Source of the DNA: an uncultured archaeon
GTDB lineage: Archaea > Asgardarchaeota > Thorarchaeia > Thorarchaeales > Thorarchaeaceae
NCBI GenBank assembly: GCA_964558645.1
Contig: CAZLEV010000010.1
Coordinates: 68,623-132,622, forward strand
Direction: 5' to 3'
DNA: 64,000 bases
In this document: positions 4,295-58,285 of the stretch, piece by piece
How the letters are laid out: every line of letters begins with the position of its first letter
Position numbering within the stretch: position 1 is the first letter of the stretch
Notes under the pieces: model-generated
Seen by the model: the letters and a program-made list of their open reading frames with translations, nothing else
The model's database searches: none
Told to the model about the DNA's origin: nothing
Program-made: the position numbers and the translations under genes

Positions 4295-4433
4295 TTCCGC
4301 CCAGAATGTAGATGCCCCTCTCCCTTAGTTCCCTGATAATCCATTCCATAGGGCGGTCACTAGCGGGTGTTGTAGTCATGCGGCTCGTCATGTCGTATTG
4401 CAACTTCATCGTTCCAGCGAGGTCGGCTGCTGC
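4269..4433 (-). pseudogene. Degenerate mvhD fragment
   Basis: 4387-4433 is 43/47 identical to 6108-6154 of the intact mvhD (AADLAGTMKLQYD), then diverges; conserved Cys residues are lost. Confidence 0.65.
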
Positions 4434-5797: not shown

Positions 5798-6208
5798 CTA
5801 CAATCTGATTGGATTCGGCCCGATCTTACGTATCTCCTCGGCGAACTTGTTGACCTCGGCTGCAAACTTGTCACCCTCGGCAGCGCTGACAAACACCATC
5901 TTCACCCGGTCCTCGTTCAGGCCCAGCTGTCCCACGAGCTTTCTCGCAAACCGCACCCGCCGTTCCGCCCCTAGGTTTCCTGTCTTGTAGGCACAGTCCC
6001 CGGGATGGCAGCCCACCACCAAGACGCCGTCCGCTCCCTCCTGCAGCGCCTTCAGGATGAAGTTGATGTCAAGGCGCGCGGTACATGGCATCCGGATGAT
6101 CCTCGAGGTCACATCGTATTGCAACTTCATCGTTCCCGCTAGGTCGGCTGCTGCGTACATACACTGCATACAGCCAAACGCGACGATTCGCATATCTTTC
6201 GGGGGCAT
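5798..6208 (-). CDS. mvhD: Methyl-viologen-reducing hydrogenase delta subunit (MvhD/FlpD, [2Fe-2S])
   Basis: FGCMQCMYAAAD, RMPCTAR, GADGVLVVGCHPGDCAY, VSAAEG. Confidence 0.92.
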   Translation of the reverse strand: MPPKDMRIVAFGCMQCMYAAADLAGTMKLQYDVTSRIIRMPCTARLDINFILKALQEGADGVLVVGCHPGDCAYKTGNLGAERRVRFARKLVGQLGLNEDRVKMVFVSAAEGDKFAAEVNKFAEEIRKIGPNPIRL

Positions 6209-6386: not shown

Positions 6387-6700
6387 ACTGATTTCGGATG
6401 CATGCACCGACCTGTGTCTAGTCGCCAGAGAGTGAGTGAACTCCCTCGATGACCTTCAACTCCCGTGTTCCACCCCTCTCATGACTGCCGTCACCGGCGA
6501 GAGTCAGGACCTCTCCCGACCCCTGTACACGAGCATTGTCCAGCGTGTGGCTGGAAGTGGCTTCACTCCGCTGCAACCTGATGCCATGGCTGTCAGCTGC
6601 CTTGCGGGCGTCCATGGCGGCAGTCGGCTGTTCCACGGTTCTTTCCACGGCGGGGTCGGCAGCGCTCACAGAGTCCACAAGGGAGCTCTGCTCATAGCAC
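6387..6700 (-). ncRNA. Putative omega/reRNA overlapping the tnpB 3' end; scaffold ending ACAGGTCGG at 6407, candidate guide 6406-6387
   Basis: Low-complexity C-terminal tail of TnpB; hairpins GCCATGG/CCATGGC, AGGGAGT/ACTCTCT and CGACT/GGTCG; the terminal 9-mer recurs upstream of both tnpB copies. The 5' boundary is a guess. Confidence 0.55.
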
Positions 6701-8193
6701 TCAGCCGCGGACGATCCCGTCGGGCCTGACAGACCCTGAGACCGTTCGGACTTCACGTCAGAGGGACGCACCCTCCTTCGAGCCTTCAAGCCTGCCTGCT
6801 CCCGTTTGCGAGGGAACAACCAGCGCTCTAGTCCGTTCTCATCTCTCAATGAAGGGATGAGCCTGATCAATCGGCGCGCGATGTTGATGGCGCCGTTCTT
6901 GTCCGCATTGCATCGATAGCCACAGGTGTGACAGATGAACAGGGACTGCTTGGGTCTCACACCTTTGTGGCCGCATCGATGGCAGATGATGGAGGTCCAC
7001 GACTCCGGGACAGCAACGAGATGCGAGTCCTTGCCGGACACTCTCCAGCCTGCCTGGGCCAGGGAGTGCCTCAGGGCAAGGGTCACCCGTGAGAAGGACC
7101 AGCGGGCCACCATCTTCCGGAAGGACTTGGGACGCCTGCTGTTTCTGTTTGCAGACCTCCGGATGTGGGTCAGTCTGCCTATGGCAACATAGAGGTTGTA
7201 CTTCTTGGAGAGCTCGAGGATGTGATCGGTGAGCTCTCGCACAAGCACCCGGTCATGGTCACGGCTGATGTTGACACGGCGACGGCTCAGTTCTCTGAGT
7301 CTTTGCATGACCTCATCATAGTCACGGCCAGCATTCCTTCTCAAATTCATCTCGTGCTGCAGGGAGTCCACCATCTCATCATAGCGCTCGATCTGCTTCA
7401 CCTTCTCGGGCTGGGTGAAGTAGCGGATATACCTCACCCGTTCCCGTGTCAAGACAGCAGAGCAGACAGCCTTATCGATACCAAGGTCTATCCCGAGGAC
7501 AGCCGGGGGCTTCCCGGATATATCCACAGGTGGGAGCCCCAGTCGTACCGAGAAGATGATCCACCATCTCTTCTGTGAGTCCTTGAGAATCCTGAGGGAT
7601 GTGACCTCTCCCTCATCCAGCCTGTTCAGATGATAGGAGGAGGGGTTCAACGGAATCATGAGCCGGTCATGGACCCAGCTGTTTGTCCGTGCAGAGTCCA
7701 AGGAGTCAAGGAGGTCGAGCCAGTATTTGGTTTCCTGCTCAGGAGTGTAGACCAGCTTGAACCTACGATTGAACACGTACCTGGGAAGCTTCCGTTCTCG
7801 ATACCCCCGGGACTTCATCGGCATCTCCCCCTCAAGGGCAAGATAGCTGTTCCACATGGCCACCGCAACCTGCCGGCACTCCTGTAGCTCGTTCAATGAG
7901 ATGTTCGGGAAGCGCTCCTTGAAGTCATGGGGAACCGTCAACCTTCGCTTCGAGGGATCTTTGAACCGCTCAGCCGTCAGGGTCAGCTTCTCTAGCCTCC
8001 CCCCATTGATCCGTTTCTTCTTCTTGCCAAACAGCAGGTCCTTCTCGTGGTGGGCGATGACTCCAAGAAACGCCCGTATTACCCGGGTGTCTCTCCCCGT
8101 CATCCGTGAGAGGCGCTCTCGCTGTCTATCAGTCATGGCGTCCCACTTCACCGGGACCTTCACACTGATGACAACCCGCTCGGAGTTCGGCAC
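6418..8193 (-). CDS. tnpB: TnpB-family RNA-guided nuclease with a rearranged (Fanzor-like) RuvC site
   Basis: RuvC-I VLGIDLG (D236); RuvC-II position holds Gly (VAIG339RL) with an alternative Glu in VPE397SWTS; Zn finger CHRC...CHTC; RuvC-III NAD431KNGAINIA. Confidence 0.9.
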   Translation of the reverse strand: MPNSERVVISVKVPVKWDAMTDRQRERLSRMTGRDTRVIRAFLGVIAHHEKDLLFGKKKKRINGGRLEKLTLTAERFKDPSKRRLTVPHDFKERFPNISLNELQECRQVAVAMWNSYLALEGEMPMKSRGYRERKLPRYVFNRRFKLVYTPEQETKYWLDLLDSLDSARTNSWVHDRLMIPLNPSSYHLNRLDEGEVTSLRILKDSQKRWWIIFSVRLGLPPVDISGKPPAVLGIDLGIDKAVCSAVLTRERVRYIRYFTQPEKVKQIERYDEMVDSLQHEMNLRRNAGRDYDEVMQRLRELSRRRVNISRDHDRVLVRELTDHILELSKKYNLYVAIGRLTHIRRSANRNSRRPKSFRKMVARWSFSRVTLALRHSLAQAGWRVSGKDSHLVAVPESWTSIICHRCGHKGVRPKQSLFICHTCGYRCNADKNGAINIARRLIRLIPSLRDENGLERWLFPRKREQAGLKARRRVRPSDVKSERSQGLSGPTGSSAAECYEQSSLVDSVSAADPAVERTVEQPTAAMDARKAADSHGIRLQRSEATSSHTLDNARVQGSGEVLTLAGDGSHERGGTRELKVIEGVHSLSGD

Positions 8194-8407
8194 ATCATTT
8201 CACCCAATCTAATAAAGTCCCGACCTGTTTTGGGTCAGGGGGAGTTCACTCACTCCTTTCTTGCGGAGCGTGGATGATAATCTCCACTTTTTCTCCCGAA
8301 CAATATCTAATAAAGTCATGAAGCCTATTTATGAAATCGCTTCTACTAGGTGATTATGGCTCTTAGAAGCGATTTCATTTGAGAAATACTTGCTCCTTTA
8401 TAAGGCA
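8194..8407 (-). promoter_or_regulatory. Conserved tnpB upstream module, copy 1 (hairpin, TATA/target site, leader RNA)
   Basis: Alignable with 63492-63704; perfect 15-bp inverted repeat 8331-8345/8364-8378; 13-bp direct repeat 8207-8219/8305-8317. Confidence 0.8.
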
Positions 8408-8494: not shown

Positions 8495-9013
8495 ATGATG
8501 AAGAGAGAAGTGGAACCGAGCCGCGGAATGCTAGCCATCCCGGGCTTTCCTGTGGTCCTAGTCACAGTGGACAGGAACATCATGACAGCAGCCGCCTTCA
8601 GCTTCTACTCCTTCAAGCCGCCGAGTGTCATGGTGGGTATCATACCACAGCAGCTGACCTTCGAGTTGATCTCACAACGAGGGGAGTTCGGCATCAACCT
8701 CCCCCGGGCGGACCAGGTGGAGGCTGTGGACATCTGTGGGAGTATCTCGGGGCGGAAGGCTGACAAGTATGAACGGACCGGGCTGACGACCATGAAGGGG
8801 AGCAAAATCGACAGCTACCTGATAGCAGAGTGTCCCGTGAACTTAGAGTGCAGGGTGGTCCACGAGGTGGACTTCGAGGGCACGCATCACTGGTTCATCG
8901 GAGAGATCCTGACTGCCCATGTGGACGATGAGTATGCCCGTGATGACGCTCTCATGTTCTGGGCCCGTGAGCTGCGGGGTGTGGGAGAAATCATTGTTCG
9001 TAAAGAGGACTGA
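8495..9013 (+). CDS. Flavin reductase family protein
   Basis: PVVLVT...NIMT, EFGINLP, IAECPVNLECRV, GTHHWFIGEI. Confidence 0.9.
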   Translation: MMKREVEPSRGMLAIPGFPVVLVTVDRNIMTAAAFSFYSFKPPSVMVGIIPQQLTFELISQRGEFGINLPRADQVEAVDICGSISGRKADKYERTGLTTMKGSKIDSYLIAECPVNLECRVVHEVDFEGTHHWFIGEILTAHVDDEYARDDALMFWARELRGVGEIIVRKED

Positions 9014-56663: not shown

Positions 56664-57442
<779 letters not shown>

Positions 57443-57840
57443 GCTTGCGGTTTAATTGGACTCAACGCCGGAAAACTTACCCGCCCAGACAGCCGAATGA
57501 GAGCCAGACTGATGATCTTGCTCGACGAGCTGAGAGCTGGTGCATGGCCATCGTAAATTCGTGCCGTGAGGTATCAGCTTAAGTGCTGCAACGAATGAGA
57601 TCCCTGCCACCTAGTTGCCAGCCGGGAACTTCGGTTCCGACGGGGCACACTAGGGGGACCGCCAGCGATAAGCTGGAGGAAGGTGGGGGCCACGGTAGGT
57701 CAGTATGCCGCGATATGGGCGGGGCCACACGCGTGCTACAATGGCGAGGACAATGCGTTACAACGCCGAGAGGCGAAGTCAATCGCGAAACCTCGTCGTA
57801 GTTGGAATCGTGGGTTGAAACTCACCCACGTGAACCTGGA

Positions 57841-57870
57841 ATTGGCAGCCACTTCGACTGCCATCAGGTC
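57841..57870 (+). other. 16S BHB mini-intron (30 nt, about position 1339)
   Basis: CCTG/CAGG helix, bulges GAA and TCA; splicing restores CTGGAATCCCTAGTA. Confidence 0.88.
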
Positions 57871-57906
57871 ATCCCTAGTATCCGCGTCTCACTAAGGCGC
57901 GGAGAA

Positions 57907-57935
57907 ACCAGTTGAGATTTCCTCACTGGCTCCTC
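57907..57935 (+). other. 16S BHB mini-intron (29 nt, about position 1375)
   Basis: GGAG/CTCC helix, bulges AAA and TCT; splicing restores GGAGAATACGTCCC. Confidence 0.9.
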
Positions 57936-58050
57936 TACGTCCCTGCTTCTTGCACACACCGCCCGTCGCTCCATGCGAGCGGCTTTGGGGTGAGGCGATG
58001 TCCGTATGGGCGTTGACGAATCTTGAGGTCGCAAGTAGGGAGAAGTCGTA

Positions 58051-58080
58051 AAGTTGTTAGACTTCCTAGCGACTCGGCCA
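58051..58080 (+). other. 16S BHB mini-intron (30 nt, about position 1499)
   Basis: GTCG/CGGC helix, bulges TAA and CAA; splicing restores AAGTCGTAACAAGG. Confidence 0.92.
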
Positions 58081-58112
58081 ACAAGGTATCCGTAGCGGAA
58101 GCTGCGGATGGA

Positions 58113-58144
58113 AGAGGATGAGATTCGCTCTCGTCTTCCATCAA
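58113..58144 (+). other. 16S BHB mini-intron (32 nt, about position 1531)
   Basis: GATG/CATC helix, bulges GAA and AAT; splicing restores GGATGGATCACCTCCT. Confidence 0.92.
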
Positions 58145-58285
58145 TCACCTCCTACGTTCTACCTCGTAGAGGTAGAAGCAGCAGAAGTGCGGGTTCTTGA
58201 CGGGGGTCAGTGCAAAGGGTGCTTGCCCTTGGCATTTTGTCGAGCCACCCTATTCTATTGCATAGTTATCAAGCCCTAGTGTGAA

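Follow-up and report, generated by a model that had tools for sequence, protein, structure and literature searches.

We analyzed a 64,000-nucleotide stretch of DNA (hereafter the window) from an uncultured archaeon of the Thorarchaeaceae (Asgardarchaeota; NCBI GenBank assembly GCA_964558645.1, contig CAZLEV010000010.1, positions 68,623 to 132,622 of the forward strand; genome G000 below). It contains two copies of a tnpB gene: copy 1, bracketed by the halves of a perfect 16-bp inverted repeat, and copy 2, which neighbors a large diverged Cas1 homolog (aCas1) and continues on another contig, C28. The genes and the repeat halves are as follows.

6418–8193, minus strand: tnpB copy 1, 591 aa, with RuvC residues D236, G339, E397 and D431 and a C4 zinc finger; its C-terminal ~145 codons overlap the omegaRNA
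8240–8255, minus strand: left half of the inverted repeat, the putative docking strand, core GAGTGAA (evidence: uniqueness, duplex, conservation)
6430–6445, minus strand: right half, 5′ arm and TTCACTC loop of the omegaRNA's terminal hairpin, described in PMC10691335 as the GTTCACTCA motif
63706–64000, plus strand: 5′ part of tnpB copy 2, continuing on C28, where its guides match intron-less 16S
58286–63451, minus strand: aCas1 partner of copy 2, 1721 aa, with a Cas1 fold (residues 1–215), a PD-(D/E)xK motif (~375–480) and a RecA-like fold (590–824)

The copy 1 protein carries the RuvC triad, rearranged at RuvC-II, and the zinc finger that mark TnpB/OMEGA nucleases, scores 91.9 bits against NCBIfam guided_TnpB (just below the cut-off of 100) and has its closest relatives in Thorarchaeota. 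D236, G339, E397 and D431 are each present in 49 of 49 sequences; the RuvC-II glutamate is a glycine, and a relocated glutamate stands before the zinc finger. The glycine might suggest a dead nuclease, which we rejected given that the relocated glutamate is invariant in all 49; the account of this family in PMC10691335 predicts the rearranged RuvC to be active. Neither a Y1 nor a serine TnpA lies beside tnpB: the neighbors of copy 1 are a flavin reductase gene and mvhD, and the recurring partner elsewhere is aCas1, found beside copy 2 and at 26 loci. Copy 1 lacks aCas1, which its nearest relatives keep, and the flavin reductase gene takes its place.

The 1721-aa partner matched nothing in Pfam, NCBIfam, PHROGs, PDB sequence or ESM Atlas feature searches; a fold search alone matched it, to the catalytic domain of Cas1 (Z 13.1, rmsd (root mean square deviation) 3.6, 178 aligned residues; casposase, Z 11.2). 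Its catalytic-type residues E69, H157 and D168 are invariant. Because the partner combines a Cas1 fold holding these residues with a PD-(D/E)xK motif and a RecA-like fold, the locus is an aCas1-TnpB element. Such elements were described as a likely transposon family (Cas1H-Asgard-1/-2; Altae-Tran et al. 2023, PMC10691335), and the GTTCACTCA motif, which here too lies downstream of tnpB, is likewise already published; the part of that paper dealing with the family gives no function for the motif. The C-terminal half of aCas1 gave no clear fold (best Z 6.2). Within 58772–60754 (residues ~975–1155), weak fold matches to Cas1 helical domains, at Z 4–5 and below the reliable range, hint at a second, degenerate Cas1-like domain.

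Complementarity between the leader and the 3′ hairpin

An earlier note on this DNA had claimed that 6430–6445 and 8240–8255 are exact reverse complements, which we confirmed; the 16-mer occurs at only these two places genome-wide. As also claimed, ACAGGTCGG follows each half closely in gene orientation, 11 nt after the left half (8228–8220) and 14 nt after the right (6415–6407). Perfect 16-bp inverted pairs spaced 200–2500 nt apart form ~13 clusters in the genome against ~2 expected by chance. Because about two such pairs are expected anyway, the 16-mer alone is weak evidence, and the case rests on conservation.

Among 55 Thorarchaeota loci, perfect 16-bp pairing is peculiar to copy 1; the others usually have perfect runs of 8–9 bp that continue with bulges. 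Common to them is a 7-bp core, GAGUGAA in the leader against UUCACUC in the 3′ loop, which pairs at positions 1–6 in 55/55 loci and at position 7 in 52/55. All five changes at core positions 3–5 retain a G-U pair, and in two loci from separate clades (L119 and L120) an A-U pair has become G-C through compensatory changes on both sides. The leader–tail duplex averages −28.7 kcal/mol for cognate versus −22.6 kcal/mol for non-cognate pairs, and the cognate duplex is stronger than that with the three nearest relatives in 31 of 39 cases. In cofolding, the mean gain across the family is −5.2 kcal/mol for cognate, −3.3 for non-cognate and −2.5 for shuffled pairs; for copy 1 the predicted gain reaches −18 kcal/mol, the leader being able to replace the cis 3′ arm at the same spacing to the repeat end. 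The leader unit is absent from related Heimdallarchaeota tnpB genes. A conserved cis partner for the 3′ loop was sought in the scaffold and none was found, with one-mismatch matches scattered over 11 of 60 loci.

A complement of the leader hairpin was also sought at the 3′ ends of copy 2 and of the homologs, where its absence would, according to the earlier note, speak against pairing; it is present in nearly all. Together with G-U tolerance and the greater stability of cognate duplexes, this supports the RNA-pairing branch of that proposal. The copy 2 hairpin at 63645–63661 folds in prediction as had been described, and the 3′ end of copy 2 is readable because contigs C10 and C28 share an exact overlap of 55 nt that is unique. 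This end pairs with its own leader (9 bp, or 13 with G-U; −24.5 kcal/mol), but it pairs equally well with the copy 1 leader (−27.7 kcal/mol), so that pairing is not exclusive between paralogs. The genome holds four tnpB elements of this family; GAGTGAAC occurs in every leader and GTTCACTC at every 3′ end.

Both halves had further been described as local hairpins with complementary loops. This holds for the 3′ half, which is a hairpin loop with a mean unpaired probability of 0.5–0.87 across homologs in the predicted fold, but not for the leader half, which forms no loop; it is mostly masked in a predicted stem by its own 5′ arm, with merely two bases about half exposed. A kissing-loop picture was rejected on this ground, and strand invasion fits better because the leader half is masked. 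The parts of the predicted leader and scaffold RNAs of copy 1, and the corresponding leader of copy 2, are listed below, where TAM is target-adjacent motif, crRNA is CRISPR RNA (CRISPR, short palindromic repeats that are clustered and regularly interspaced) and UTR is untranslated region.

6407–6835, minus strand: predicted omegaRNA scaffold, 5′ limit approximate; kept in omegaRNA-only derivatives
6654–6659, minus strand: scaffold hexamer CCGACC, pseudoknot partner of both repeat ends
6407–6415, minus strand: 3′ repeat end ACAGGTCGG, the end of the scaffold
6393–6406, minus strand: 3′ guide, antisense to mvhD codons F11–Q15
8207–8287, minus strand: leader crRNA-like unit in the predicted 5′ UTR, comprising masking arm, docking strand, repeat end and spacer
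8220–8228, minus strand: leader repeat end ACAGGTCGG, whose last six bases pair with the scaffold hexamer
8207–8219, minus strand: leader spacer, identical to 8305–8317
8305–8317, minus strand: TATA box of the predicted promoter P1, target of the leader spacer (13-nt identity)
8318–8322, minus strand: TAM-like TTCAT before the promoter
63578–63595, plus strand: copy 2 TAM TTAAT and promoter protospacer
63610–63689, plus strand: copy 2 leader unit, with core 63647–63654, repeat end 63668–63676 and spacer 63677–63689

The scaffold hexamer pairs with the leader end in 52–54 of 55 loci at four positions, and at the fifth T-A (21) stands against C-G (21). The end of the 3′ unit is likewise matched by this hexamer; tail hexamers were chosen by complementarity, which leaves the leader-end counts as the only independent ones. 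The ISDra2 omegaRNA has a pseudoknot among its conserved elements (PMC13639567), and a 3′ omegaRNA with a pseudoknot before the guide and a 5′ TAM is recognizable here as well, by covariation only. The short repeat–spacer RNA has conserved complementarity to the scaffold, both lying on one predicted transcript whose processing into two RNAs is putative. Judged by its sequence, the leader would have everything that a crRNA-like guide needs except a scaffold, and the inverted repeat would supply the attachment. Rfam has no family for the leader RNA or the omegaRNA, and the loci hold one to three degenerate units, not the regular repeat–spacer array of type V CRISPR.

Promoter and gene targets of the guides

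The leader spacer behind ACAGGTCGG is a base-for-base copy of a stretch 92–105 nt upstream that holds a TATA box. This promoter copy is present in 46/55 loci with a median of 13 nt (leader spacers range from 9 to 17 nt), and TTCAT or TTAAT, both TAM-like, precedes the promoter protospacer in 39 of the 46; the 46 loci carry the short, TAM-flanked match to the own promoter typical of CreR. The match averages 12.9 nt for cognate versus 2.1 nt for non-cognate combinations, with 43 distinct 12-mers, a control that rules out a mere TATA consensus as the source of the duplication. A TATA box ~27 nt before the transcript start is the spacing expected of an archaeal promoter. The upstream copy lies ~27 nt before the conserved leader start, from which we infer the role of P1 as a promoter. 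The downstream copy is more likely a spacer than a promoter because it precedes a GGTGA motif and is separated from the start codon by only 19–24 nt; a dual role is possible. Among the third guide units seen in L103 and L104, that of L104 is preceded by a GGAGAATATCA stretch like the leader 5′ arm, which suggests that extra guide units arise as leader copies.

The 3′ guides, mostly 12–17 nt long, match genes nearby, of which the window holds two.

5798–6208, minus strand: mvhD (FlpD family), the neighboring target gene of copy 1
6160–6177, plus strand: resident mvhD site, TAM-like TACAC and protospacer, with guide mismatches at wobble positions 6, 9 and 12
57840–58145, plus strand: 16S rRNA 3′ end, containing four insertions of ~30 nt; sites matched by guides of copy 2 and its neighborhood are interrupted by three of them

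The 3′ guide of copy 1 is antisense to codons 11–15 of the adjoining mvhD gene. None of 20 mvhD guides (17 loci) matches its resident copy over 12 nt, and the mismatches sit on codon third positions (positions 9 and 12 account for 33 of 34, versus 20.9 expected), an excess reached in 0 of 200000 permutations (P < 1e-5). Most of these guides match alleles of other loci over 11–17 nt. Six displaced mvhD remnants, with five distinct upstream junctions, begin at codon 14, five bases into the protospacer; guided insertion and post-cut repair would account for them equally well. The window also holds remnants of older mvhD copies downstream of the intact gene, at 4387–4433 and 2870–2924, with serpin-like and transporter genes between them, and the pattern recurs in L034, L046, L096, L097, L099 and L100.

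Copy 2 lies downstream of the 16S gene, and its guides correspond to 12 and 16 nt of intron-less 16S. Both sites are interrupted by ~30-nt insertions in the resident gene, as is a third site, matched by a third guide 5.9 kb beyond copy 2. At C28:7340–7445 lies an orphan omegaRNA end whose loop is degenerate and whose guide is directed at the third 16S site. Overall, 16S guides match intron-less alleles over 12–27 nt behind RAT TAMs. Resident sites are interrupted by insertions in G000, G004, G005 and G006, and in the latter three the guides to intact 16S sites are degenerate. That the guides are antisense RNAs to mature rRNA is unlikely because some are sense to 16S and all stand behind a TAM-like RAT. 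A fourth 16S mini-insertion lies near the anti-Shine-Dalgarno end (58112–58142); no guide for it was found in G000, and one is present in G004 and G006. The 16S gene also has a larger intron (56670–57410) encoding a LAGLIDADG protein (56729–57409), and therefore protein-guided and probably RNA-guided homing coincide on one gene.

Promoter and target TAMs agree with each other, TTCAT occurring with CAY (mvhD) and TTAAT with RAT (16S). Other loci target an adjacent tRNA, with less regular self-avoidance, and in a mobile subclade the flanking DNA serves as guide. In the TnpB tree, mvhD targeting appears in two places and so does 16S targeting. Thus, an adjacent conserved-gene target with a protected self allele, a feature of free-standing homing endonucleases, is found for mvhD and 16S, with exceptions in G023, L113 and L131. 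At L112 (G020:C91) the guide runs on into a 43-nt tRNA-Arg 3′ half, and 27 nt of 16S persist at L103; trimming of an original insertion flank may have left the fixed guides as relics.

A probable docking helix for two guides

We consider it probable that the inverted repeat is an RNA–RNA docking helix through which one TnpB scaffold carries either of two guides, the leader guide for autorepression and the 3′ guide for homing or insertion. Transcription from P1 would yield the leader, tnpB, the omegaRNA and the 3′ guide, so the leader is probably an extra guide on the same primary transcript as the omegaRNA. The scaffold hexamer would pair with the six bases before either guide, as covariation indicates. 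The leader GAGUGAAC strand, complementary to the terminal hairpin in its 5′ arm and its exposed UUCACUC loop, would invade there, displacing the cis 3′ arm and seating the leader repeat end and its 13-nt spacer in the same geometry. This leader-guided complex would bind the matching TAM and TATA box of P1 and repress the element without cutting. The cis-guided complex would instead attack foreign alleles of mvhD (copy 1), 16S (copy 2) or, elsewhere, tRNAs, the resident allele being shielded by synonymous changes or mini-introns; the element could then spread like a free-standing homing endonuclease or mark the site for insertion by aCas1. For the 3′ guide, cutting followed by homing is the outcome we lean slightly toward, and guided insertion or binding only falls a little on the doubtful side.

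Several observations weigh against this model. For C2 and C26 cofolding is predicted to gain only ~−2 kcal/mol, the docking strand is hidden by the leader's own 5′ arm, and extra 3′ guide units lack a docking strand. True compensatory evidence is thin (two events) because the core is nearly invariant, the 55 loci are mutually related, and within G000 the pairing is not paralog-specific. As to the targets, one G023 guide, whose repeat end carries a single change, matches a 16S site that is intact in its own bin, and the L113 and L131 guides match a resident tRNA over 14 nt. Finally, the length ranges of leader spacers and 3′ guides overlap, and a difference beyond length is needed if the former are to repress and the latter to cut: the docked form may be unable to cut, or cutting may occur in neither form, with the complex guiding aCas1 instead.

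The last of these options leads to a reading that keeps the transcript, the pseudoknot, the docking and the promoter repression and differs in the 3′ guide: the ribonucleoprotein would never cut with guides of 12–14 nt, and would only bind, repressing P1 and, when its loop is free, recruiting aCas1 for insertion at the guide-matched site, as in CRISPR-associated transposons. The equal lengths of promoter and gene guides, the mvhD remnants with their shared start and five junctions, and the invariant E69, H157 and D168 of aCas1 all agree with it. We nevertheless judge it rather unlikely, since the RuvC triad is invariant in 49/49 sequences (Cas12k, by contrast, has no such invariant triad), the guide and its self-avoidance persist at many loci, copy 1 among them, that have lost aCas1, and members of the mobile subclade use flanking DNA as guide.

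The leader could also act on its own as a mini guide or riboregulator. Its 5′ arm would then be a duplicated omegaRNA end with its 3′ arm just pairing to that duplicate, and the complementarity to the 3′ hairpin would be a by-product. The leader does fold by itself (z −2.5 and −2.7), the 5′ arm is similar to the 3′ motif, and the downstream extra units do without a docking strand. However, in the self-fold the invariant leader GAG lies opposite an internal loop and is partly unpaired, although it is complementary to the invariant CUC of the 3′ loop, and leaders prefer their own tails to those of the nearest relatives; this explanation therefore appears quite improbable to us. More improbable still is that the helix merely closes the 1.8-kb mRNA end to end, controlling translation, processing or omegaRNA circularization, with the leader never loaded as a guide. 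A single predicted transcript does contain both halves, folding of the leader can cover the ribosome-binding region, and circular omegaRNA isoforms are among the findings in archaea given in PMC12558985; such closure leaves unexplained, however, why a TAM-flanked, locus-specific promoter copy stands right behind a repeat end that covaries with the hexamer.

The remaining branch of the earlier note, in which the halves are DNA terminal repeats or integrase (aCas1) binding sites, drew on the inverted halves bracketing tnpB, on its usual Cas1-fold neighbor and on the frequent flanking repeats of such loci noted in PMC10691335's treatment of them, but is already largely refuted and very improbable: aCas1 lies outside the repeat pair, conserved covarying sequence extends beyond each half, the variation tolerates G-U as that of an RNA would, and the ~12 omegaRNA-only or miniature copies in G000 end ~22 nt past GTTCACTC, at the repeat end and beyond the right half, with no GAGTGAA leader core within 620 nt upstream. 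A transposon with the 16-mers as terminal inverted repeats was rejected likewise, the mobile copies not ending at these repeats.

Returning to the docking model, a more tentative extension, possible but on balance doubtful, is a two-guide, one-scaffold TnpB in which a 5′-UTR crRNA swaps in by strand invasion and silences the element, the native guide acts as an allele drive at housekeeping genes or guides a Cas1-family integrase, 16S mini-introns and synonymous recoding confer self-immunity, and the whole represents a half-way stage, beside a Cas1, from omegaRNA to trans-activating CRISPR RNA (tracrRNA) and crRNA.

Relation to known systems and further observations

Jin and colleagues (2025) reportedly treat the splitting of omegaRNA into tracrRNA and crRNA in the origin of type V. 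As in that splitting, which the earlier note had seen echoed here, a short repeat-plus-spacer RNA completes a long scaffold by base pairing. The pairing part of the comparison holds but a full split does not, because the omegaRNA retains its own covalently attached guide; moreover, there is no regular array, and the short RNA targets self. Like CreR and other crRNA-like autoregulators (type I, V-A) and the long tracrRNA of Cas9 (10.1101/2023.03.10.532045; 10.1101/2023.03.03.530964), the leader is a putative stand-alone guide with a short match to its effector's own promoter, flanked in those systems by a protospacer-adjacent motif, and would compete with the normal guide. Unlike CreR, the effector is an array-less transposon TnpB, and the regulator lies in the 5′ UTR and seems, from its sequence, to need the omegaRNA scaffold via strand invasion.

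With free-standing, intronless or collaborative homing (T4 Seg/Mob, SegB; PMC13565253) the loci share a nuclease beside a conserved gene, aimed at foreign alleles, and self-protection by polymorphism or a nearby intron. In contrast to homing endonucleases, an RNA encodes the specificity, which has been redirected between mvhD, 16S and tRNAs, and cleavage and homing are putative here. As in the IS200/IS605 TnpB of ISDra2, the omegaRNA overlaps the 3′ end of the gene, with a pseudoknot beside the guide, a 5′ TAM and, in the mobile subclade, flanking DNA as guide; unlike ISDra2, there is no Y1 TnpA, the RuvC-II glutamate is relocated, a second guide lies in the leader, and guides are fixed on housekeeping genes.

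The loci resemble Cas1H-Asgard as portrayed in PMC10691335, an Asgard TnpB beside a diverged Cas1 with a conserved GTTCACTCA downstream. The guide was placed there, possibly, in a variable stretch upstream of GTTCACTCA, a question left open in that account. Here, by contrast, the guide starts 15–30 nt downstream of GTTCACTCA, the motif is the leader-complementary loop, and targets are identified. Our analysis thus offers a testable answer as to where the aCas1-TnpB guide lies and what GTTCACTCA does, and predicts TAMs, guides and targets for an uncharacterized Asgard nuclease with a Fanzor-like active site. It would also provide a concrete route by which a one-piece omegaRNA, beside a Cas1 homolog, could begin to take crRNA-like guides supplied separately, a matter relevant to how type V CRISPR arose, and suggests a reason for the tiny 16S introns of Thorarchaeota and for mvhD being an insertion hotspot. 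Literature searches found no paper combining TnpB with Thorarchaeota, none on TnpB autoregulation and no later paper on the function of GTTCACTCA.

Non-autonomous copies, either omegaRNA-only (~550 bp) or miniature (~160 bp), occur in G000 on C2, C4, C5, C6, C8, C9, C13, C16, C17 and C26. The short copies carry subterminal TGTCAGA/TGTAAGA repeats, which are candidate aCas1 sites, and their right flanks often begin with CTAG. On C2, two omegaRNA ends (426100–426200 and 432860–432970) directly abut tRNA-Gly 3′ ends and flank an aCas1-tnpB pair. In L141, L142, L144, L146 and L148, internal deletions join a 5′-truncated tnpB to a 5′-truncated aCas1, with promoter and leader lost and omegaRNA and guide kept; these fusions could stem from abortive gap repair or from self-cutting at P1. 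Further aCas1 genes without a tnpB of this family lie on C6, C14, C27 and C30, those on C6 and C14 with a more distant TnpB. Upstream of copy 1, a 106-nt intergenic block common to copy 2 has been retained.

8333–8376, unstranded: palindrome in the 106-nt block, a relic of the divergent aCas1 promoter region

The flavin reductase gene (8495–9013) stands behind this block and may use its promoter.

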